Below, piece after piece: positions 598 to 10,981 of a stretch of 31,027 nt of DNA. A program made the position numbers and the translations under genes. Origin of the DNA: an uncultured Gammaproteobacteria bacterium (GTDB lineage: Bacteria; Pseudomonadota; Gammaproteobacteria; Magnimaribacterales; TMED112); contig CAYFES010000002.1 of the NCBI GenBank assembly GCA_964342225.1, positions 1-31,027 of the forward strand, in the 5' to 3' direction. The notes beneath the pieces were generated by a model. That model ran no database searches and was not told the DNA's origin. It was given only the letters and a program-made list of their open reading frames with translations. Every line of letters starts with the position of its first letter. The first letter of the stretch is position 1.

Positions 598-1285
598 ATT
601 AATTTGCTTTGATACTGAGACAACAGGACTTGATTTCTCAGCCGGTGATAGAGTCATTGAAATAGGCTGCGTTGAAATTTTAGGCAGAGAAAAGACAGGG
701 AATGAATTTCAGACTTATATAAACCCAGAAGGAAAAGAAATAAGCCAAGAGGCACAAGAAATAACTAACATTTCACCAGAACAACTTAATGAGGCTCCAA
801 AATTTAAAGATATCGCTGATAAATTTATCGATTTTGTAAAAGGTGCTGAATTAGTAATACATAATGCAGAGTTTGATGTAGGGTTTATCAACAATGAGTT
901 AAAGGTAATGAAACACCAAATTTCTGATATTAGAGATATATGTACTGTTTTTGATACTTTAGTTCATGCCAGAAAAGTATTTCCAGGGCAAAGAAATAGC
1001 CTAGACGCATTATCTAATAGATTAGGGATATCTGGTTACGATAGAACTCATCATGGAGCATTACTTGATGCTCAAATACTTGCAGATACATATTTAAACC
1101 TAACAGGGGGACAAGTAACCTTTGATTTAGCTGAGAATGCTCCTAATCAAAATACAAAAGAGGATGAATCTCAAGTAAATAATTTAGAGTTCATTAAATT
1201 TTCTAGCAATAACACAGATGAAACAGAACATAATAAATTTATAGAGATGATGGCACAAAGAAATGAAAAAGAGGCTAATAGATGA
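587..1285 (+). CDS. dnaQ: DNA polymerase III epsilon subunit
   Basis: DEDDh exonuclease motifs DTETTG, HNAEFD and HGALLDAQIL; follows rnhA. Confidence 0.96.
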   Translation: MSARLICFDTETTGLDFSAGDRVIEIGCVEILGREKTGNEFQTYINPEGKEISQEAQEITNISPEQLNEAPKFKDIADKFIDFVKGAELVIHNAEFDVGFINNELKVMKHQISDIRDICTVFDTLVHARKVFPGQRNSLDALSNRLGISGYDRTHHGALLDAQILADTYLNLTGGQVTFDLAENAPNQNTKEDESQVNNLEFIKFSSNNTDETEHNKFIEMMAQRNEKEANR

Positions 1286-2574
1286 CAAAAAAAATTGTTA
1301 CAAGATTCGCACCAAGTCCAACTGGCTATCTTCATATTGGTGGCGTTAGGACAGCACTTTTTAATTTTGTTTTTTCACGAAAAAATAATGGGACTTTCTT
1401 AGTTCGCATAGAAGATACTGATAAAGAACGATCTGAGGAACAATATATAACTGCAATCATCGATGGTTTAGATTGGGTTGGGCTTAACCCAGATCATGAA
1501 CCAATCAAACAAAGCGATAGGTTTGATATCTATAAAGAAGAAGCCTTCAGATTGGTGGAAGAGGGTAAGGCGTATAAAGATGATGGCGCAATAAGACTTA
1601 AGGTTAATAAAGAAGGCTCAACATTAGTTAAAGATTTAGTCTATGGAGATATTGAGTTTCTTAATAAAGAATTAGACGATTTAGTAATTCTAAGAAGTGA
1701 TAATTCACCAACTTACCATTTTTGTAATGTAATCGATGATAATTATCAGCAAGTGACACACATTATTAGAGGAGAGGATCATTTGCCCAACACCCCTAAA
1801 CAAATCCAAATTATTAATGCACTTGGCTATGATGGTTTTAAGTATGCTCATTTACCACTAGTGCTTGGAGAAGATAAAAAGAGATTGTCAAAAAGACATG
1901 CAGCTACAGATTTAATGTCTTATAAAGAAGAAGGGTATTTACCTGAAGCCGTTTTAAATATGCTGGCAAAATTAGGTTGGTCAAATACAGAAAAAGATAT
2001 ATTCACAACAGATGATCTAATTAAAATATTTGATGTTAGTGATATTCAAAGATCAGGAGCTGTATTCGATAAAGAGAGACTTAACTTTATCAATCAGAAC
2101 CATATGGCTATGAAAACTGATGATGAATTAATGGATTTACTTAAAATCTTTAATGAAAAAAATGGATTTTCATTATCTGACCATCATGACCCTAAAAGAT
2201 TAGTGAGGCTTTGCGTAGGAAGTGGCAATAATTTTTCAGAGATATCAAATTTTATAAAACCATTTGTAATTGATTTTGATGAATACGACAAAGCTGACTT
2301 TGACAAACATCTATTAGAGAGTGAGAGGGTCCTAAATTATTTTAAAGAATCAATTCATTCAATAAGTGATTGGAATGAAGCAATATTTGAGGAAATTATT
2401 AATTCCGCTATGAAAGATTTGGATCTGCCTATGCCTAAAATAGGTTTGCCTCTTAGAGTAGCTTTAGTGGGTAGGGCAAAATCTCCTCCTCTTAGCTCAA
2501 CTATATATTTAATTGAAAAAAATAAGACAATTGAGAGATTAGATAAAGCCTTAAAGGTTATTTCTGCACACTGA
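1282..2574 (+). CDS. gltX: Glutamate--tRNA ligase, short form lacking the Zn-binding insertion
   Basis: TRFAPSPTGYLHIGG (HIGH), RIEDTD, IRGEDH, RLSKR (KMSKS); C-terminal anticodon-binding region (LRVALVG) present. Confidence 0.95.
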   Translation: MTKKIVTRFAPSPTGYLHIGGVRTALFNFVFSRKNNGTFLVRIEDTDKERSEEQYITAIIDGLDWVGLNPDHEPIKQSDRFDIYKEEAFRLVEEGKAYKDDGAIRLKVNKEGSTLVKDLVYGDIEFLNKELDDLVILRSDNSPTYHFCNVIDDNYQQVTHIIRGEDHLPNTPKQIQIINALGYDGFKYAHLPLVLGEDKKRLSKRHAATDLMSYKEEGYLPEAVLNMLAKLGWSNTEKDIFTTDDLIKIFDVSDIQRSGAVFDKERLNFINQNHMAMKTDDELMDLLKIFNEKNGFSLSDHHDPKRLVRLCVGSGNNFSEISNFIKPFVIDFDEYDKADFDKHLLESERVLNYFKESIHSISDWNEAIFEEIINSAMKDLDLPMPKIGLPLRVALVGRAKSPPLSSTIYLIEKNKTIERLDKALKVISAH

Positions 2575-4258
2575 CTTTGGCGTCAGGTCTTCGTAAATCA
2601 GCAAAACCAAAATTTATTTCATCTTTAATATGGATGCTTTGAGTACTTCCCATAGTTTTTGATTCTTTTGGTTTGTGCCCATAGCCCTCGAGCATTCTTT
2701 TAGTATCATTATTTAGTGTTTTTTCAACTTGAAGGCTGTAGTAAGGCCAATCTTGATGAATTCTAGGCATCATCGTTGCTAGACCTATATCAAGATCAAA
2801 ATCAATTACATTTATTAAGACTTGTAGATTAATCGCCGGTATTTTAGAGCCTCCAGGAGACCCTGTAATAAGCTCTAAGCTTCCATTTTCATCAAAAACC
2901 ATTACAGGACTCATTGTACTCATAGGCCGTTTAAAAGGTTCAAGTTTGTTAGCTTCTGATGTGCTTCTACTAATTGATTTTTCTAAACCATAATTACTAG
3001 CAAAATTATTCATTTGGCTATTTGTAAGAATGCCTGTTCCTGGAATTGTTACTCCAGAACCAAATGAGTAACCCAATGTATAAGTAACTGAAACAGCATT
3101 TCCGCTATCATCCACTATTGAATAATGAGTGGTATCTTCTGATTCTTTGTATTTAGATTCAATTGATCTTGTAACTCTATTTATTCGATCTGAAGAAGTC
3201 GTTTTTTTGAAGTCAATTTCTTTTGCTCTGCGATTGCCATTAGCATCTGACAGCATATCTTCTAAAGGCGCAGAATAAAATTTAGGATCTCCAATAAATT
3301 TAGATCTATTTTGATGGCCATGCTTTAATGATTCAGCAAGAATATGTAAGTATTGCGCACTATTTGGTTTTAAATTGCTGTAATCAAAGTTCTTCAATAT
3401 TTGTAAGGCAGTTAGAATGACAACTCCACCACCACTTGGAGGGCCTTGAGCAAAAATAGATTTATTTCTATATTCAATTGAAATTGGCTGAGCAATATTT
3501 GTTTTATATTTCTTTAAGTCACTCTTCCTTATTAGCCCACCATTTTCTATCATGGCTTTTTCAATTTTTTCTGCAATTTCACCATCATAAAAACCAGCTT
3601 TACCTTCATCTCGTATCTTTATTAAAGTCTCAGCAAGATCCAATAATTTAATTTTCCCTCCAACTTCTAGACTCTCATCTAAATAAACTTTTGTTGATTC
3701 TTCATCTCTTGTTAGAGTCTTTGTATTTTGTATGGCACCATAAAGATCGCTCGTAAGCGGTATACCTTGAATGCAAAGATCAATAGTGGGTTGAATTAAT
3801 TCTTTCATGCTTATAGAGCCATATAGTTCATGGGCTGTAAAAAGACCATCAACAGTACCAGGAACAGCAATTGCTTTGTAACCAGATCTAGATAGTGAGC
3901 TCTGATGCTCACCATTTTTTCTGTATACATCAGGTGTAGCAAGTTCAGGAGACATAGATCTGAAGTCTAAACTAACAATGGTTTTATTTTTTGCATCATA
4001 AATGAGCATAAAACCGCCACCACCTATATTTCCAGCTCTTGGTAGTGTTGCTGTTAATGCAAAACCTACTGCAACGGCTGCATCTACAGCATTCCCTCCT
4101 TTTGACAGTATTTCTGCGCCTATATCAGAAGCAATATAGTTCTGACTTACAACCATACCTTTATCAGACACTGTTGGATGGAAAGGATGAGAATATTCAA
4201 GATATTCTTGTGACCTAATAAATAGCGATAAAAGTAGTAATAGAGATAAACGTAACAT
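2558..4258 (-). CDS. ggt: Secreted gamma-glutamyltransferase-family Ntn hydrolase with a non-canonical (acylase-like) substrate pocket
   Basis: GGNAVDAAVA, GNIGGGGF, DFR, catalytic TTHYS (Thr376) and GSPGG; N-terminal hydrophobic signal-like segment. The pocket reads TLGYSFG and QMNNF instead of TLNxxFG and QMDDF. Confidence 0.9.
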   Translation of the reverse strand: MLRLSLLLLLSLFIRSQEYLEYSHPFHPTVSDKGMVVSQNYIASDIGAEILSKGGNAVDAAVAVGFALTATLPRAGNIGGGGFMLIYDAKNKTIVSLDFRSMSPELATPDVYRKNGEHQSSLSRSGYKAIAVPGTVDGLFTAHELYGSISMKELIQPTIDLCIQGIPLTSDLYGAIQNTKTLTRDEESTKVYLDESLEVGGKIKLLDLAETLIKIRDEGKAGFYDGEIAEKIEKAMIENGGLIRKSDLKKYKTNIAQPISIEYRNKSIFAQGPPSGGGVVILTALQILKNFDYSNLKPNSAQYLHILAESLKHGHQNRSKFIGDPKFYSAPLEDMLSDANGNRRAKEIDFKKTTSSDRINRVTRSIESKYKESEDTTHYSIVDDSGNAVSVTYTLGYSFGSGVTIPGTGILTNSQMNNFASNYGLEKSISRSTSEANKLEPFKRPMSTMSPVMVFDENGSLELITGSPGGSKIPAINLQVLINVIDFDLDIGLATMMPRIHQDWPYYSLQVEKTLNNDTKRMLEGYGHKPKESKTMGSTQSIHIKDEINFGFADLRRPDAKVSVQK

Positions 4259-5730
4259 CAGAATATTAATGGAAGCATATAAATACAGAATACCGTAACA
4301 ATTATGATTCCTGCAATATTGAAATAAAGACCAGCCCTCATCATTTGCCCAATGCTAAATTTCTCTGAACCATAAACTATTGCATTGGGAGGTGTGGCAA
4401 CTGGCAACATAAAAGCACAGCTTGAAGCCAAAGCTACTGGAATCGCAAGTTGTGCAATAAGGCTTAAATCTTTTGAACCATCTGGCATTAAGTTTTGTTC
4501 TGAGACTGCTAGAAGGATCATTATTGGTACAAAGGTAGCTGTTGTAGCTTGATTGCTTGTAAGTTCAGTAAGAAAAACAATTAAAACAACAATTAATAAA
4601 ATTAATAATGCTGCATTTAAAGCAGGGATAGAATCTCCTATCCATGCTCCTAAGCCTGAACCCATTATGGCATTGGCCATTGATAAGCCACCACCAAATA
4701 GAATTAATATGCCCCATGGTAATTTCGTTGTTGCACTCCACTCTATTAATCCCGAACCCTTACTAGATCGAGTTATAAAAACAGCTAAAGCAGCAATAAT
4801 GGCTATACCATAATCAGTTAACCCACTTAAGAAAGATAGATTGTCTAGTAGATCTCTAGTCATCCAAGCAAGAGCTGTAAAACAGAATATAACTAAAACT
4901 CTTCTTTCATCTACACTTATTTTGCCTAAATCTTCATACATTTTTTGTAGGGATTTTTTTGTTTCTTGAGTGCCACTGATATGCACTGGAAAAATTATAT
5001 GAGTCAGTAACCACCAACCTACTAATAGCATAATTGCTGATATTGGTGTCGCTAAAAGCATCCAATTATTAAAAGACACTTCTAATCCTTGTTCTTGTAT
5101 GAGGCTTATGACCACAATATTTGGTCCTGTACCAATAGGAGTTGCCATTCCTCCAATTGTTGCAGCATAAGCAATTCCTAATAACAGAGCAGTTTGAAAA
5201 TTAGAAAAATCTTTATCCAAAGAAGTTGTTTTCTGTACCACGCCTGCAATAGCTAAACCTATAGGCAATAACATTAAAGTTGTTGAAGTATTCATAATCC
5301 ACATACTAATCAAAGCACTTACAAGCATAAAACCACCTATTAAGTATTTCGCATCTGTACCAATAGATAAGAGCATCTTCAAAGCAATTCTTTTATGTAG
5401 GTTTACCTTTTCTATAGCTAAAGCCAAAATAAAACCACCTAAAAATAAAAATACATTGGGATGAGCATATGGAGCCGCAACTTCTGTAAATGCTTTTTTA
5501 GCTGGGTAATCATAGATACCAAGCAATGGAAATAGTGCTAAAGGAATTAAGGCAGTAGCTGGAAGTGGTATTGCTTCAGTTGCCCACCAACAAGCCATCA
5601 AAAGAACTACACCTGCAACATGCCAAGCCTCACTTGATAGACCACCAGGAGGTGAAGTCAGTAGCGTAAAGAAAAAAAGAATTAATCCAGAAGCAAAACC
5701 TATAAATTTTGGACTAGAAATATTGCTCAT
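4258..5730 (-). CDS. SLC13/DASS family Na+/dicarboxylate (or other anion) symporter
   Basis: WWATEAIPLPATAL, FLFLGGF, GGMATPIGTGPN, LPWGILILFGGGLS and AFMLPVATPPNAI; many TM segments; stop overlaps the GGT start (TGATG). Confidence 0.92.
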   Translation of the reverse strand: MSNISSPKFIGFASGLILFFFTLLTSPPGGLSSEAWHVAGVVLLMACWWATEAIPLPATALIPLALFPLLGIYDYPAKKAFTEVAAPYAHPNVFLFLGGFILALAIEKVNLHKRIALKMLLSIGTDAKYLIGGFMLVSALISMWIMNTSTTLMLLPIGLAIAGVVQKTTSLDKDFSNFQTALLLGIAYAATIGGMATPIGTGPNIVVISLIQEQGLEVSFNNWMLLATPISAIMLLVGWWLLTHIIFPVHISGTQETKKSLQKMYEDLGKISVDERRVLVIFCFTALAWMTRDLLDNLSFLSGLTDYGIAIIAALAVFITRSSKGSGLIEWSATTKLPWGILILFGGGLSMANAIMGSGLGAWIGDSIPALNAALLILLIVVLIVFLTELTSNQATTATFVPIMILLAVSEQNLMPDGSKDLSLIAQLAIPVALASSCAFMLPVATPPNAIVYGSEKFSIGQMMRAGLYFNIAGIIIVTVFCIYMLPLIF

Positions 5731-5762
5731 AAAAAAAGGAGGCGCGAAATTAATCGCGCCTC
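5731..5762 (-). terminator. Intrinsic terminator after the TonB receptor gene
   Basis: Perfect 9-bp stem GAGGCGCGA/TCGCGCCTC (5739-5747 with 5754-5762) and 6-nt loop, followed on the minus strand by C and T7 that abut the SLC13 ATG. Confidence 0.85.
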
Positions 5763-5778
5763 AAACAAAAAACAAGAT

Positions 5779-8739
5779 TTAGTATGTAAATCTTAAATCG
5801 ACGTAGAAGTTTCTTCTTAAATTATTATCTAAATCTTCAAAGTAACCCATTCTAGAAGAAGCTAATGGAGCTCTTTCGTCTTCTAGGTTGTTTACGCCCA
5901 TTCTTATTCTTAGATCACTTTCAGCAAAATTTGTGTAGTAATCTGTATACAAGTTCATTGTCTTATGCGGTGCTACGCCCCACATTGCGCCTGCAGATGA
6001 AAGAGTTCTATCTTCCCAAACAGTACTTCTAGCATTCTGATTCCATCCAACAGCCCAATCGCCACGTCTGAATCTAAGAGAAGTATAAGTTTTTCTCTTA
6101 GGCGCACCGTTTATAGCAAGAAGGTTTCCATAACCATCTATTGCTGTGAGTGGAACAGTTCCTGCATCCATAGCATCATCTATTTGTTGCAGTTCAGCAC
6201 CATAGCCTTGTGATTTATCAGTAAGCATTGAGATCTGATGCTTGAATGACCATGTACCATTAAATGGCCACATTGATTCCCAATCAAAATATACACCTGC
6301 ATCCCATCCTTCTACTGTTCTAGCAGCTAAGTTGGCGTATTTATCTTCAACTCTTTCTGCTAAACCAAATGGACAAATACCAGCATCTAAGAAAGTTTGA
6401 GGGTTGTCTGGTGCTTGTCTTACTACAGCTGGGTTACCAACTACAGCAGCACAATTTGAAAGATCATTTTGTTGCAACCTTAATAGAAGGTCATACAACA
6501 TATGGTTCTCTTCACCAAATAATCCAATTGTATTTTCTGATTCAATAGTCCACATGTCATAAGTCAATGTTAGATTATCAAATTCTAGAACTATTCCCAT
6601 TGTAGTATTTTCTGATTCTTCAGCTTTAAGCAGGTTACTACCTGTAGCAGCTCTTTGGACAGAATATCTACCATCAGAATCATCAGTGTCAGCACCAAGA
6701 GCGATTGCGTACTTAGTAGCAGCATCATTTCTGGTATTGTTTCTGACAACTAGACTCTCGTTGATTGTAATTAAGTTAGGAGCTCTAAAGGTATCTTGTG
6801 ATGACCCTCTGAATTTTAGCCAATCAGCTACTCTCCAACCAAAAGCTAATCTTGGAACTTCTGTACCTTCAAAGTCTGAATATGCTTCAGCTCTATAAGC
6901 AACCTGTAAATCAAGTTGTTGAACGAAAGGAACGTTTTGTTCAGGACTTACAACAGGAACATCTAATTCTAAATAGTAAGAGTTAACTGTTCTGTTACCA
7001 CTGCCATCAGGTGTTGGGCTACTGTTAACAACATCTGAAACATAAGGGTATGTATCTCCTGGACTTGTTGAAAGACTACCGCTAGTTTTTCTTTCAGTAA
7101 AGACAATAGTTCCATCAAGTCTTGGGTCTCTGTCGTCCTTGAAGGAATCACTTCTAAACTCATAACCAACAGCGACACCTATCCAACCTGCTTTAGTTTC
7201 CCAAACATTAGGATTTGAAAATCTCATATCAAAAGTTGTCATAGTTCTTTCGTTGTTTCTAAATACGTCTACAACTGCAGGTCCTATTCCGCCTGGAGTT
7301 AAGTCCACAGGGTTATGTGATACTCTCGGACTAATATATACACCACCACCATTGAAGGGGTTATAAGCGTTTGGTCCAGTGGCTTGTAATAGTTGGTCCA
7401 TTAGAGTATTTGAAACTCTATTGTGAGTAACATCTTCGGCTTCAGCAGTTGAATATGATATTGCTGATTCCCAATCCCATCCTGTGTCAGTAACACCTCT
7501 AAGACCCATTAACATTCTATTGGTCTCTTTATCGTTATCGACAATTCTTGGTCCAGCATCAACAAATCTATAGTTATCCATTAATAATGCTTTACCAGTA
7601 AAGTTATAAGGGTTCGTTGCAGGAACTACGTGTTTTACAGAAGAGAAAGATGAAGAGGAGTGTCTATTACCATTGTATTCACTTCTATACTGACCAAATT
7701 CTGCAAATGCTTCACGTCCATCACCTAAGTCATGGTTAATGAAAATGAAAGTATTATGTCTTTGGACATCACCAAGAACATCTCTTTGTCCGTTCCAGTT
7801 ATGGATAAGGTTTCCTGCTGTATCTTTAGCAGCACAAACTCCATTACCTAAATTTAATACACAATCAGGGTCTCCAGCAGGGTAAATTAAGAACTCACCT
7901 GAACTATCTGTATAAGCAGCAGTACCACTCATATCAAATTGTCCCCATGCTGAGTTAGATGAACATCTATAGAAAGCACTATTAAACTGATCTGGAACTA
8001 GATCGTCATAGTCACATCTACCCATGATTTCATCTTCAGCAGCTGCAACTCTGTCTCTGTCATAAAAACTAAAAAACATTGAAATATTAGTTTTTCCACC
8101 ATTAAAGTCTTGACCCCATTTCATTGAGAATTTATGGTCATCACGATTAAAGTGTTGCCAATTCTGGAATCTTCCTCTCATCTCGAAACCAACAAAATCT
8201 GTTTCAAGAACATTGTTTACAACACCAGCAACAGCATCGGAACCATAAACAGCTCCTGCACCATCTCTAAGTATTTCAACTCTATCCACTAGAGATACTG
8301 GTATATTGTTTGAATTAACTGTGGCGACTGGAACATAACTTCCACCTACTTCTTCCGTCTGGTAAGAAGGTGTAGAGATCATTCTTCTACCATTCAATAG
8401 GACAAGTGTATTACCTGTACCTAAAGATCTGATATCAAAAGCTCCTACGTCACCTCTTGAAGCGTTAACACCTCCGCCGTTTGAACCGACGTCGTTAAAC
8501 TGGTTAACACCTTGTTCTGTAATAGTTGCTAAAAGCTCATCACCAGAGTTGACACCTCTATCATCGATATCATCTTTAGTAATAACCGTAACCGGTAAAG
8601 CTTCATTAATTCTGGCGCCTTTAATTTGCGTACCAGTAACAACCACTTCTTCTACATCATTACCGTCGTCTGTTTCCTGTGCATTCACTGAAAAAACGAC
8701 AGCACACATTAATAAAATTAAATATTTAATCTTGGTCAT
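5779..8739 (-). CDS. TonB-dependent receptor (986 aa)
   Basis: Signal peptide, TonB box EEVVVTG, plug motifs TLVLLNGRR and DRVEILRDGAGAVYGSDAVAGVVN, C-terminal beta-strand ending in an aromatic residue (DLRFTY); SD-like GAGGGGGG upstream. Confidence 0.95.
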   Translation of the reverse strand: MTKIKYLILLMCAVVFSVNAQETDDGNDVEEVVVTGTQIKGARINEALPVTVITKDDIDDRGVNSGDELLATITEQGVNQFNDVGSNGGGVNASRGDVGAFDIRSLGTGNTLVLLNGRRMISTPSYQTEEVGGSYVPVATVNSNNIPVSLVDRVEILRDGAGAVYGSDAVAGVVNNVLETDFVGFEMRGRFQNWQHFNRDDHKFSMKWGQDFNGGKTNISMFFSFYDRDRVAAAEDEIMGRCDYDDLVPDQFNSAFYRCSSNSAWGQFDMSGTAAYTDSSGEFLIYPAGDPDCVLNLGNGVCAAKDTAGNLIHNWNGQRDVLGDVQRHNTFIFINHDLGDGREAFAEFGQYRSEYNGNRHSSSSFSSVKHVVPATNPYNFTGKALLMDNYRFVDAGPRIVDNDKETNRMLMGLRGVTDTGWDWESAISYSTAEAEDVTHNRVSNTLMDQLLQATGPNAYNPFNGGGVYISPRVSHNPVDLTPGGIGPAVVDVFRNNERTMTTFDMRFSNPNVWETKAGWIGVAVGYEFRSDSFKDDRDPRLDGTIVFTERKTSGSLSTSPGDTYPYVSDVVNSSPTPDGSGNRTVNSYYLELDVPVVSPEQNVPFVQQLDLQVAYRAEAYSDFEGTEVPRLAFGWRVADWLKFRGSSQDTFRAPNLITINESLVVRNNTRNDAATKYAIALGADTDDSDGRYSVQRAATGSNLLKAEESENTTMGIVLEFDNLTLTYDMWTIESENTIGLFGEENHMLYDLLLRLQQNDLSNCAAVVGNPAVVRQAPDNPQTFLDAGICPFGLAERVEDKYANLAARTVEGWDAGVYFDWESMWPFNGTWSFKHQISMLTDKSQGYGAELQQIDDAMDAGTVPLTAIDGYGNLLAINGAPKRKTYTSLRFRRGDWAVGWNQNARSTVWEDRTLSSAGAMWGVAPHKTMNLYTDYYTNFAESDLRIRMGVNNLEDERAPLASSRMGYFEDLDNNLRRNFYVDLRFTY

Positions 8740-8835
8740 ATTGAGACCCCCCTCATTATTAGTTTATTTAACTAGAAAACATTGTATTTTTCAAGTTTTA
8801 AAACACATTGAATTAATTTAAAATAAAGGGTTTTT

Positions 8836-8911
8836 GGGGCCATAGCTCAGCTGGGAGAGCGCAACGCTGGCAGTGTTGAGGTCAGGGGTTCGATCCCCCT
8901 TGGCTCCACCA
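8836..8911 (+). tRNA. tRNA-Ala (GGC)
   Basis: GGGGCCA/TGGCTCC acceptor with G3:U70, anticodon arm CAACG-CTGGCAG-TGTTG, TTCGATC T-loop, encoded CCA. Confidence 0.97.
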
Positions 8912-8927: not shown

Positions 8928-9407
8928 ATGGAAATATCATTTATTGGCTGGATACACACTATTTTAGGCACCTTAGCTATTTTGATAGCAATTTTTATAA
9001 TCGCAACACAGGGTTTTATTACTGTGAAAAATTCATTGGGTAAATTTTATTTAATTGCAACAGCCATAACTGCTGCTACTGCACTGATGCTATATAAAAA
9101 TGGTGGTTTTAATCTTGCTCATCTTTTAGCAGTTTTTACTTTAATTGCAATTTTTCTAGGTTTGGCTTCAGAAAAATACAATATTCTTGGCATTTCAAAA
9201 TACCTTCAAGCAATGTCATATACAGGAAGTGTCTTGTTCCATCTGATACCGGGAATTGCAGAAGTAAATAAAAGATTGCCTTTAGATAGCCCTATGGGCC
9301 TTTCGGTTGATGATCCTATCAATATTCGTTATTACCTTATTTTTACCTTAATTTGCGGAATTACAGTTTTGGCTCAATGGGTATATATTTGGAAGAAAAA
9401 AGTTTAG
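8928..9407 (+). CDS. Integral membrane protein, DUF2306-like
   Basis: About 5 hydrophobic segments; conserved-looking His residues (GWIHT, LAHLL, FHLIPG); AGGA SD. The family assignment is by recall only. Confidence 0.6.
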   Translation: MEISFIGWIHTILGTLAILIAIFIIATQGFITVKNSLGKFYLIATAITAATALMLYKNGGFNLAHLLAVFTLIAIFLGLASEKYNILGISKYLQAMSYTGSVLFHLIPGIAEVNKRLPLDSPMGLSVDDPINIRYYLIFTLICGITVLAQWVYIWKKKV

Positions 9408-9814
9408 CTATTCTGCTTTTTCCACATTGAATGTAAAAGATAGAACCAAAAACCATTAAGTATTGGTTCAATAATGGCATCTACAGCAGCTTCATTAAAA
9501 GAAACATCAAAAATAAAAGATGCCCATAAAGTTGCAATACAAAAATGCCCCAGCGTATAAATAGACGTCAAAGTTAAGGTGTTTAAGGCATTTTTTGCGA
9601 TTCTATGAAGAAAATAGAACCAAAAACCATTGATTATTGGCTCAATAATGGCATCTGCAGCAGCCAAAGAAAAAGATGCATCAAAAATTAAAGTTGCACA
9701 GGCCCAGGCAATAATGATGTGGCCTATTGTATAGACGACAGCTAAACCTAAACTGCCAATTTCTTTTATTTGAGTATCGACTTGTTTCTTTACCGAAAGG
9801 ATTAATTCAGTCAT
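9404..9814 (-). CDS. Small membrane protein made of two tandem DUF2061-like repeats
   Basis: Two copies of YTxGH...A..DAIIEPIxNGFWFYxLH, 58 codons apart. Confidence 0.8.
   Translation of the reverse strand: MTELILSVKKQVDTQIKEIGSLGLAVVYTIGHIIIAWACATLIFDASFSLAAADAIIEPIINGFWFYFLHRIAKNALNTLTLTSIYTLGHFCIATLWASFIFDVSFNEAAVDAIIEPILNGFWFYLLHSMWKKQNS
9441..9664. repeat. Intragenic direct repeat, cores at 9441-9490 and 9615-9664
   Basis: 46 of 50 nt identical by hand alignment; offset 174 nt, in frame. Confidence 0.9.
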
Positions 9815-9818
9815 TAGG

Positions 9819-10562
9819 TTAATTGTATTGTTTTTTGTGCTCTAAGTATGCTTCCCAAGCAATCTTTTGTAGGAAATTCAAATCTTCTTTAGAAATTTGA
9901 TTTAAGTAATTATATTCTAGACCTTCAGGAGAAGAGCCAGTAATAACAGCAAATACAACACAAGACCCTAAGTAAGTTCCAAGCAATCCCGGGTGAGTTC
10001 CATCTGGATGATGTAGCTTTATGTTAGGCCTCTCTTTATAAGCCATTTCATAAGCTGTTCCTACAGGAATAACTGCAGATTTACTTTTTTTGCCAGCATC
10101 ATAATAGGCTAGTTCAATTTTTTTGATTAAGTTTGGCTCGTATCTAGGATCATTATCAAGATATGCATGCGTCATATATAAAGCTGTTTTTATACCTAAT
10201 TTTTGAGCTTTTCTGCTGTAATCTATAGCAGTCTTTGAAAATTTAGACCTTAATTCCAAAGTAGTAACCTCTTTACTACCGCCCTGCATTATTAATAAAT
10301 CTATCTGTCGATCTAGTTGTAAATTATTGTAATCAAGCAGATGGTCAATATTATGATTATGCAATCTAGAACCTCCGATTGTCGCTGATTTAGTGATAAT
10401 GTTTTGATCTTCATAATGTTCAATTAGCATTCTTTCAACGTGATTGTGTACGCTATCGTTGTAATAGAGATAACTATTACCAATAAATAAAATTCTTTTT
10501 GGATATTCAGCAAGCAATAAGTTTGATAACAAAACAATTAAAAAAACTTTTAAAAATTTCAT
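9819..10562 (-). CDS. Secreted SGNH/GDSL-type hydrolase (DUF4886-like)
   Basis: Signal peptide, block I ILFIGNSY and block V DGTHP (DxxH). Confidence 0.8.
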   Translation of the reverse strand: MKFLKVFLIVLLSNLLLAEYPKRILFIGNSYLYYNDSVHNHVERMLIEHYEDQNIITKSATIGGSRLHNHNIDHLLDYNNLQLDRQIDLLIMQGGSKEVTTLELRSKFSKTAIDYSRKAQKLGIKTALYMTHAYLDNDPRYEPNLIKKIELAYYDAGKKSKSAVIPVGTAYEMAYKERPNIKLHHPDGTHPGLLGTYLGSCVVFAVITGSSPEGLEYNYLNQISKEDLNFLQKIAWEAYLEHKKQYN

Positions 10563-10981
10563 TTTTTTATGTCCTTATGCATAGCAGTAAATACAATTTT
10601 AGAAATCAGATTCCCTTTTTCATCTTCTATTTTTACATTCCACACAGATGTACTTTTTCCTATATGATTTGGCGAAGCAATTGCATATACAAAACCTTCA
10701 GTAATGCTTTTTATATGGTTTGCTGTCAGGCTTAACCCTACAACTGTTTTTTTGCTTGGATCTACAGTTAGATATGCCGCACAACTAGCAGTACTTTCTG
10801 CTATAACGCATGAAGCTCCACCATGGAGAAGACCTAAAGGCTGACGAGTTTTTTCGTTTACAGGCATTTTTGCTTTTAAATAATTATCTCCAAGCTCAAC
10901 AAATTCTATTTCTAGATGTTTGTCTATATTTATGGATGAACGAAAATTTTCTATTTTGTAGTCTTTAAACCATACACTCAT
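10559..10981 (-). CDS. Hotdog-fold acyl-CoA thioesterase (PaaI/MenI-YdiI type)
   Basis: MPVNEKTRQPLGLLHGGASCVIAE, LTANHIK and VWNVKIEDE motifs. Confidence 0.9.
   Translation of the reverse strand: MSVWFKDYKIENFRSSINIDKHLEIEFVELGDNYLKAKMPVNEKTRQPLGLLHGGASCVIAESTASCAAYLTVDPSKKTVVGLSLTANHIKSITEGFVYAIASPNHIGKSTSVWNVKIEDEKGNLISKIVFTAMHKDIKK

Follow-up and report, generated by a model that had tools for sequence, protein, structure and literature searches.

A variant gamma-glutamyltransferase with a rebuilt donor pocket, encoded beside a TonB-dependent receptor and a DASS symporter in a SAR86-related genome

Introduction

What does a gamma-glutamyltransferase (GGT) cleave once it has lost most of the groups that hold the alpha-amino end of its donor, and how closely is it tied to the outer-membrane receptor and the anion symporter encoded beside it? 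These questions are raised by a three-gene locus in a 31,027-nt stretch of DNA (contig CAYFES010000002.1 of assembly GCA_964342225.1), which we call the window. This stretch is contig C2 of a genome of 860 kb that is 87% complete and whose nearest relatives are labelled SAR86 or uncultured Gammaproteobacteria. SAR86 bacteria count as some of the most abundant surface-ocean heterotrophs, and the literature gives their GGTs one function, the scavenging of glutathione (PMC3358033; ISME J 2024 wrae227). An earlier reading of the window from its letters alone (the original prediction) took the three genes to be a scavenging system for dicarboxylic acid amides, in which the GGT is a periplasmic acylase.

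Layout of the locus

The genes encode a TonB-dependent receptor, a symporter of the DASS/SLC13 family and a variant GGT (vGGT). All three lie on the minus strand, and base 4258 is common to the DASS stop and the GGT start (TGATG, a 1-base overlap); the co-orientation and coupling that had been proposed are thus real, and the signal-like N-terminus noted on the GGT is a signal peptide. The features on which the argument rests are listed here, with E. coli numbering for the equivalent residues.

5779-8739 (-): TonB-dependent outer-membrane receptor of 986 aa (P0003); signal peptide present, TonB-box-like EEVVVTG close to the N-terminus
5731-5778 (-): receptor-symporter spacer, with a 9-bp GC hairpin at 5739-5762 and a T7 run
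4258-5730 (-): DASS/SLC13 Na+-coupled anion symporter, 490 aa (P0002), matching PF00939 and TIGR00785
2558-4258 (-): variant periplasmic GGT-family Ntn hydrolase (vGGT), 566 aa (P0001), with a signal peptide
3956-3958 (-): codon of Ser101, equivalent to E115, beside Arg114
3131-3133 (-): codon of Thr376, the autoprocessing and catalytic nucleophile, equivalent to T391
3071-3073 (-): codon of Gly396, equivalent to N411, an alpha-amino binder and partner of lid Tyr444
3005-3010 (-): codons of Asn417-Asn418, equivalent to D432-D433
2957-3004 (-): lid-loop segment, residues 419-434, including Ile429, equivalent to Tyr444

Pocket residues of the variant enzyme

vGGT belongs to the GGT family (MEROPS T03 Ntn hydrolases) over its full length. 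The Pfam profile PF01019 matched residues 49-557 with 500.6 bits, and TIGR00066 gave 471.5 bits against an equivalog cut-off of 357.85, so annotation pipelines will call the protein a gamma-glutamyltransferase. We took residue equivalences from a HMMER alignment to E. coli GGT (PDB 2e0w, E 4e-112). The alignment agreed throughout with the equivalences given before (R100, T376, G396, Q415, N418, I429, S447/T448 and the Gly-Gly pair), and the arithmetic behind the codon coordinates for T376, G396 and N418 is correct. Only the claim of a gap-free match after Thr376 fails, as a single additional residue occurs in the window protein around 456-458.

The catalytic machinery is kept: T376 (T391), the helper T394 (T409) and the oxyanion pair G469/G470 (G483/G484) are all in place, and T376 is invariant in all relatives that we aligned. 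Also kept is the clamp for the alpha-carboxylate, formed by R100 (R114) and S447/T448 (S462/S463, with a conservative Ser to Thr change). The alpha-amino triad N411/Q(E)430/D433 reads G396, Q415 and N418, so that two of the three binders of a functional GGT are lost and Q430 is kept. The neighbouring D432 (N417) and E115 (Ser101) are neutralised as well. As lid residue Y444 has become I429, no aromatic residue gates the pocket through N411. The roles of N411, Q430 and D433 and the Y444-N411 gate are confirmed for the E. coli enzyme (PMC8062742).

At position 433, where an Asp would have spoken against the original prediction, we found the Asn that is a feature of class IV cephalosporin acylases. 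The match of vGGT to a B. halodurans protein described as a cephalosporin acylase (PDB 2nlz) was no better than E 9e-46. The precedent that had been invoked for this change holds: the E. coli D433N mutant gains acylase activity, at a low level, on glutaryl-7-ACA (7-aminocephalosporanic acid) (PMC8062742). The change of N411 to Gly is predicted to enlarge the pocket rather than fill it; an engineered B. subtilis acylase carries Tyr at the equivalent site (E423Y; PMC8062742).

A separate clade and its canonical paralogue

Among 120 close homologues (at least 59% identity to vGGT), G396 and N418 were kept in all 120 and N417 in all but one, which has Tyr. Because of this conservation the pocket pattern cannot be put down to chance. 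GGT homologues number roughly 29,000, and the wider set comprised the best 150 GGT representatives at 50% identity, giving 156 aligned rows. The canonical N/E/D/D at positions 411/430/432/433 was present in 108 of these rows, and the top matches showed G(S)/Q/x/N together with S-T at 462-463. All vGGT sequences fell on one side of a single branch (FastTree SH 98; IQ-TREE SH-aLRT 97.5). In the FastTree tree their sister is a canonical clade that includes the GGTs standing in tandem with vGGT in SAR86 family f2, one of the four families (f1-f4) of the order, which suggests that vGGT originated by tandem duplication.

At a threshold of 80% or more, the two groups are separated by E115S, N411G, E/Q430Q, D433N, S463T and I488P. 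Position 433 is Asn in 100% of the vGGT rows and Asp in 100% of the canonical rows, position 411 is Gly in 89% compared to Asn in 100%, and position 115 is Ser in 85% compared to Glu in 100%. At position 432 the clade has Asn, Arg, Lys, Tyr, His, Ser or Ala, often Arg or Lys. The changes at E115, D432 and D433 therefore remove three acidic side chains around the alpha-ammonium site, and many members put a cation there. The lid differs too: in the canonical enzymes it has a fixed length and a PN.YGL.G motif (73 of 74 rows), whereas in vGGTs it is degenerate and 15-26 residues long.

The window genome also encodes a canonical GGT, on contig C11 (L001, 1357-3072), which has N/E/D/D/F at the pocket positions and is 35% identical to vGGT. 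The two kinds stand in tandem in f2 and in metagenome contigs, an arrangement that speaks for non-redundant roles. Judged from alignment and trees, vGGT is a real and supported subfamily of GGTs with a rebuilt donor pocket, and it has probably neofunctionalised. The clade is not described in a 47-sequence study of GGT subfamilies. SAR86 genomes contain two kinds of GGT, where the literature has described a single glutathione-scavenging function.

GGTs with altered pockets turned up in a single genome (G384) of the 400 Gammaproteobacteria sampled outside SAR86, which makes the clade rare among them. This 4.1-Mb genome (loci L079 and L080) has three GGT paralogues with the pockets N/E/D/D, M/N/G/N and G/Q/H/T, and only the last adjoins a homologous receptor. 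A further GGT group (P0125, P0180, P0195, P0207, P0264) has E/E/G/D at 411/430/432/433; its 1129-aa member P0125 gives two matched stretches.

The main rival to a new function starts from these same residues. vGGT could be a hydrolase, without transpeptidase activity, of glutathione and gamma-glutamyl peptides, supplying cysteine and glutamate to a cell that does not assimilate sulfate, in which case the pocket changes would only suppress transpeptidation. This would fit the score above the NCBIfam equivalog cut-off and the SAR86 literature, which assigns GGTs to glutathione scavenging and notes the missing sulfate assimilation. It would also fit the D433N mutant, which loses transpeptidation and retains 82% of gamma-glutamyl hydrolysis (PMC8062742). 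The earlier statement that the protein is not a glutathione enzyme therefore does not follow from D433N alone. The rival must explain, however, why a canonical GGT exists alongside vGGT, and even in tandem with it, and why four to five pocket positions changed together, including the Arg or Lys at 432 that is expected to repel an ammonium group. The lid Tyr and its partner are both lost, and glutathione (307 Da) requires no TonB receptor. We consider ordinary glutathione hydrolysis fairly unlikely; if true, it would reduce the finding to a hydrolysis-only GGT paralogue.

Receptor, spacer and transcripts

The receptor matched the Pfam profiles of a TonB-dependent receptor, namely Plug (PF07715, 58.6 bits) and the 22-strand TonB barrel (PF00593, 49.9 bits). 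Its solved relatives (FepA, PirA, BtuB) were matched at the level of the plug only and are uninformative on the substrate. The spacer hairpin has a predicted energy of −18.4 kcal/mol (RNAfold), and the T7 run behind it reaches the symporter ATG. We found a hairpin with a T-run at the equivalent place in 13 of 15 related loci, with differing stem sequences, and we read the element as an intrinsic terminator or attenuator. As this GC hairpin and T-run separate the receptor from the symporter, the receptor is not simply part of one tight three-gene unit.

Parts of the locus were found in marine metatranscriptomes of at least 10 studies. RNA contigs of four runs, each from a different study, were aligned with the locus; such contigs give coverage and neither expression levels nor a ranking of the genes. 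The receptor gene was covered end to end in all four runs, and the DASS gene was covered in part in two. One RNA contig begins at 5767, immediately upstream of the hairpin, and the spacer was bridged by contigs in two other runs. This coverage agrees with strong expression of the receptor and attenuated read-through from it into DASS-vGGT.

The receptor is preceded by an upstream region for promoter and leader, for which we established no promoter:

8740-8835 (-): receptor upstream region (promoter and leader), bounded by an opposite-strand tRNA-Ala gene

The tRNA-Ala gene (anticodon GGC, 8836-8911, plus strand) has the receptor gene on one side and a divergent gene for a small membrane protein on the other, and it confines promoter and leader to about 95 nt. 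A riboswitch or other RNA element was considered for this region and dropped, as Rfam gave the tRNA only.

The symporter

P0002 is a DASS protein by both family profiles (TIGR00785 with 292.7 bits against a cut-off of 198.6; PF00939 with 235.5 bits), and its best solved relatives are NaCT, NaDC1, NaDC3 and VcINDY. The two hairpin-tip motifs of this family, Ser-Asn-Thr/Val, serve to bind Na+ and carboxylate; in P0002 they are MNT and SNQ, compared to SNT and SNV in human NaCT; both Asn residues are kept and the first Ser has become Met. The MNT plus SN(x) pattern is identical across all SAR86 families, with or without vGGT. We looked for co-adaptation of the DASS with vGGT and found no signal, since the pattern is unchanged in family f4, which has no vGGT.

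Genomic linkage

From a sample of 200 genomes of the order, we inspected loci of all four families. In the window the triad is flanked by housekeeping genes. A gltX-like gene at 1282-2574 (plus strand, 430 aa, class I Glu/Gln-type tRNA synthetase-like) is convergent with the GGT gene and overlaps its 3' end by 17 nt, with RNase T and RNase H beyond it; on the upstream side lie tRNA-Ala and small membrane proteins. Receptor, DASS and vGGT are co-directional in f1 and f3. In two loci (L035, L037) the whole triad is flipped with respect to the gltX/RNase T/RNase H block, and in f3 it moves as a unit. In f2 the flanks are different, and receptor and DASS are convergent on a canonical GGT followed by vGGT. 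L041, the one f2 locus that we annotated further, has an operon at 3050-7879 (plus strand) of a PF00144 beta-lactamase/DD-peptidase-family gene, canonical GGT and vGGT, which is convergent with receptor-DASS. Five near-complete f4 genomes encode a canonical GGT only; their DASS orthologue lies elsewhere, beside patatin and GpsA genes, and a full-length receptor orthologue is absent from four of the five.

Outside this sample, vGGT-clade members of metagenomes and other genomes (GC 42-56%) adjoin homologous receptors of about 1000 aa with 31-37% identity over the full length. Four loci of this kind place the receptor next to a GGT gene. L032 has the same receptor-DASS-vGGT triad, L057 has the receptor followed by vGGT, and L054 has vGGT, receptor and canonical GGT. 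L080 begins with a receptor, an M14 peptidase and a binding protein and continues with a receptor, a variant GGT, a TAXI binding protein, an M20 peptidase, a creatininase-family gene, a sensor kinase and a sigma-54 regulator. In L054, L057 and L080 the setting is outside SAR86. Some of the closest receptor homologues among the 400 sampled Gammaproteobacteria have no GGT neighbour. Their loci contain a DASS and/or an exported SGNH hydrolase (DUF4886), a CCP-like M14 peptidase and DctB/DctD-like regulators (sensor and sigma-54). Neighbours acting on peptides recur in other lineages as M14, M20 and PF00144 genes, besides the SGNH hydrolase; the CCP-like M14 was found in G384 and G560, and M20 in f3 and G384.

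The tie between receptor and vGGT is specific. As read from gene content, the recurring logic is a receptor plus a periplasmic hydrolase plus an anion carrier, in loci that appear to be tuned to acidic compounds. The predicted linkage of the G411/N433 variant to an SLC13 symporter and a TonB-dependent receptor stands for three SAR86 families, and for the receptor also outside SAR86; it does not extend to f4, where the DASS is unlinked.

Two further features of the cassettes were noted. In f3 loci (L036 at 6592-7464, plus strand; L039; L048) a 290-aa gene without a Pfam match lies between receptor and DASS and overlaps the DASS start, and these cassettes are also surrounded by an M20 peptidase, a LysR regulator and an EthD-domain gene. 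Within one genus (window versus L003, L010, L013, L046 and L047) the divergence across the cassette is mosaic. The identity to the window is 79% for the receptor, 84% for the DASS and 62% for the GGT in L003, and 36% for the receptor and about 63% for DASS and GGT in L010 and L047. These values suggest gene-wise replacement or recombination within the cassette.

Proposed mechanism and alternatives

We propose a receptor-fed scavenging pathway in the periplasm and give it slightly better than even confidence. The receptor would import a conjugate that is probably too large or too scarce for porins. vGGT would then cleave an amide bond of the conjugate by means of its kept catalytic Thr, oxyanion Gly-Gly and carboxylate clamp. 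From the loss of the groups that hold the alpha-ammonium, with the clamp kept, it follows that the acyl group would be a C5 glutaryl-type unit with an alpha-carboxylate and no free cationic amine. Such a unit could be either des-amino (glutaryl-like) or an N-blocked gamma-glutamyl group, as in the internal gamma-Glu of peptidoglycan stems or poly-gamma-glutamate. The anionic product would be a plausible cargo for the adjacent Na+-coupled DASS, and the internal terminator would set receptor expression well above that of symporter and enzyme. The gene identities, residue switches, clade, linkage and transcripts are as observed above; from them we infer the substrate class, the direction of flow and the DASS cargo.

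Within this proposal the donor can be drawn in two ways. The des-amino version is that of the original prediction: vGGT would be an acylase for glutaryl or succinyl amines or siderophore fragments, and the DASS would take up the freed glutarate or succinate. The D433N precedent (PMC8062742) argues for it, as do the closest DASS relatives, which are carriers of di- and tricarboxylates. Homologous receptor loci also carry DctB/DctD-like regulators and AstE/AspA-like M14 and M20 hydrolases, families that include desuccinylases. Against it stand the larger pocket left by Gly411, where the engineered B. subtilis acylase has a Tyr, and the Arg or Lys at 432 in many clade members, which suggests that an extra polar or anionic group is bound. 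Succinyl is one carbon short of the kept carboxylate clamp, and no siderophore or iron genes were found near the triad in the window. We regard the des-amino version as rather unlikely.

In the N-blocked version vGGT would cleave gamma-glutamyl bonds whose alpha-amine is acylated, and canonical GGT would finish the free-amine ends. Candidate bonds are gamma-D-Glu-mDAP (mDAP, meso-diaminopimelate) of stem peptides, internal bonds of poly- or oligo-gamma-glutamate, phytochelatins and folyl-polyglutamates. Because N411 to Gly enlarges the pocket and peptidase neighbours recur, a donor of this type appears to fit no less well than an amide of a des-amino dicarboxylyl group. Gly411 and the degenerate lid make room at the spot to which the alpha-amine points, canonical and variant GGT are in tandem in several lineages, and a substrate of about 1 kDa would suit a TonB receptor. 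Neighbours that act on peptides are found elsewhere (PF00144 before the canonical-variant GGT pair in f2, M20, the CCP-like M14 and the SGNH hydrolase), and SAR86 is predicted to degrade peptidoglycan (PMC3358033). This support is contextual, however, and drawn from different lineages: no peptidase adjoins the triad in the window, and an M14 carboxypeptidase was not found in this 87%-complete genome. The DASS cargo also lacks an obvious candidate, and folate biosynthesis is reported to be present in SAR86 (Dupont et al.). We hold the N-blocked version to be possible, though short of probable. Salvage of folate polyglutamates was set aside as the principal explanation, since Dupont et al. list folate synthesis in SAR86 and HPPK is present here; FolP was not found in the window genome, at 87% completeness.

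Several observations weigh against the receptor-fed pathway as a whole. The retained hydrolysis of D433N has been given above, and class IV acylases may be true GGTs with an adventitious activity (PMC8062742). A strong terminator stands between receptor and DASS, and RNA contigs from the four runs scarcely covered the GGT gene. The DASS is the sole one in the window genome and a core single-copy gene; f4 keeps it, unlinked and without vGGT, with an identical motif 1 (MNT) and an unchanged SN(x) pattern in motif 2. For these reasons it is not a dedicated partner of the enzyme; it is a core carrier that is possibly just shared with the receptor-vGGT pathway. The f3 locus L038 has the receptor followed by vGGT with no DASS between them, and a DASS was not seen at non-SAR86 vGGT loci. 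Much of the linkage within SAR86 could be synteny inherited in streamlined genomes.

Taken to its end, the last point becomes an alternative in which the substrates of receptor, DASS and vGGT have nothing to do with one another and the genes have stayed syntenic merely through genome streamlining. The whole f1 region is indeed syntenic, including the gltX-like, RNase T and RNase H genes, and both the terminator and the DASS standing alone in f4 would be expected. This alternative is very unlikely in our view, as the triad moves as a unit in f3 and is rebuilt in f2 with another orientation and other flanks, and as receptor-GGT and receptor-DASS pairs recur in distant Gammaproteobacteria.

We therefore retain the receptor-fed pathway with a donor that lacks a free alpha-amine. 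The original prediction was right on the pocket changes and is supported by their conservation, by the separate clade and by the linkage; it overstated the exclusion of glutathione and the DASS partnership, and an N-blocked donor fits equally well or better than the amides that it named. A bolder form of the proposal, which we find doubtful, is that vGGT is an undescribed and ocean-abundant GGT subfamily which, with a dedicated receptor, harvests N-blocked gamma-glutamyl compounds (stem peptides, oligo-gamma-glutamates, phytochelatins) from dissolved organic matter. If true, such harvesting would be a new enzymatic route for the turnover of refractory dissolved organic nitrogen and sulfur. Once identified, the substrate would put a name to a new pool of dissolved organic matter on which SAR86 draws, and vGGT would then be a natural template for glutaryl or N-acyl-glutamyl amidases.

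Genes upstream of the receptor

A run of small genes lies beyond the tRNA, one of which may have an accessory role:

9819-10562 (-): possible accessory gene, exported SGNH-type hydrolase (DUF4886, P0275), PF16227 with 36.4 bits

P0275 is encoded about 1 kb upstream of the receptor on the same strand and has a signal peptide and GNS and DGTH motifs. Its homologue stands directly after or facing a homologous receptor in L081, L082 and L062, and a role in the receptor-vGGT system is possible. The gene is part of a tight co-directional run at 9404-10981 (minus strand) of a 4HBT thioesterase, this hydrolase and a duplicated membrane protein, with a 4-nt overlap at the junction of thioesterase and hydrolase. 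The membrane protein (P0276, 9404-9814, minus strand, 136 aa, without a Pfam match) is an internal tandem duplication, and both halves terminate in a near-identical DAIIEPI(I/L)NGFWFY motif.

Comparison with known systems

vGGT resembles E. coli Ggt (PDB 2DBU, 2DBX, 2E0W) in its signal peptide, autoprocessing Thr, oxyanion Gly-Gly, carboxylate clamp and lid-loop length. It differs by N411G, D432N, D433N, E115S, Y444I, S463T and I488P, by its separate clade and by its linkage to a TonB receptor and a DASS. With the D433N mutant and the class IV acylases it has Asn433 in common, a change by which a glutaryl group without the alpha-amine is accepted (PMC8062742). The homology of class IV acylases to GGTs is put at about 30% (PMC8062742), and our comparison of them with vGGT is by described feature and not by sequence. 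Gly411, the non-acidic residue at 432 and Ser115 take vGGT beyond the D433N mutant.

The symporter P0002 aligns over its full length with VcINDY and the SLC13 proteins NaDC1, NaDC3 and NaCT (E 1e-49 to 1e-64) and shares both hairpin-tip Asn residues with them. It differs in motif 1, which is Met-Asn-Thr and not Ser-Asn-Thr, and its motif 2 is Ser-Asn-Gln.

CapD of Bacillus anthracis accepts internal, N-acylated gamma-glutamyl units. CapD and the Bacillus GGTs are distant from vGGT and belong to Gram-positive bacteria without TonB or DASS partners. Both lack the lid loop (PMC8062742). P0001 has a sequence match to CapD (PDB 3g9k), and CapD and B. subtilis GGT are both GGT-family enzymes that handle gamma-glutamyl chains.

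Utilisation loci centred on a TonB receptor combine the receptor with a periplasmic hydrolase and an inner-membrane carrier, and they show strong receptor expression and an attenuator after the receptor gene. The receptor described here is without a close solved relative beyond the plug domain. The three-compartment logic of those loci is alike here, with a GGT-family amidase as the hydrolase and a DASS protein as the carrier.

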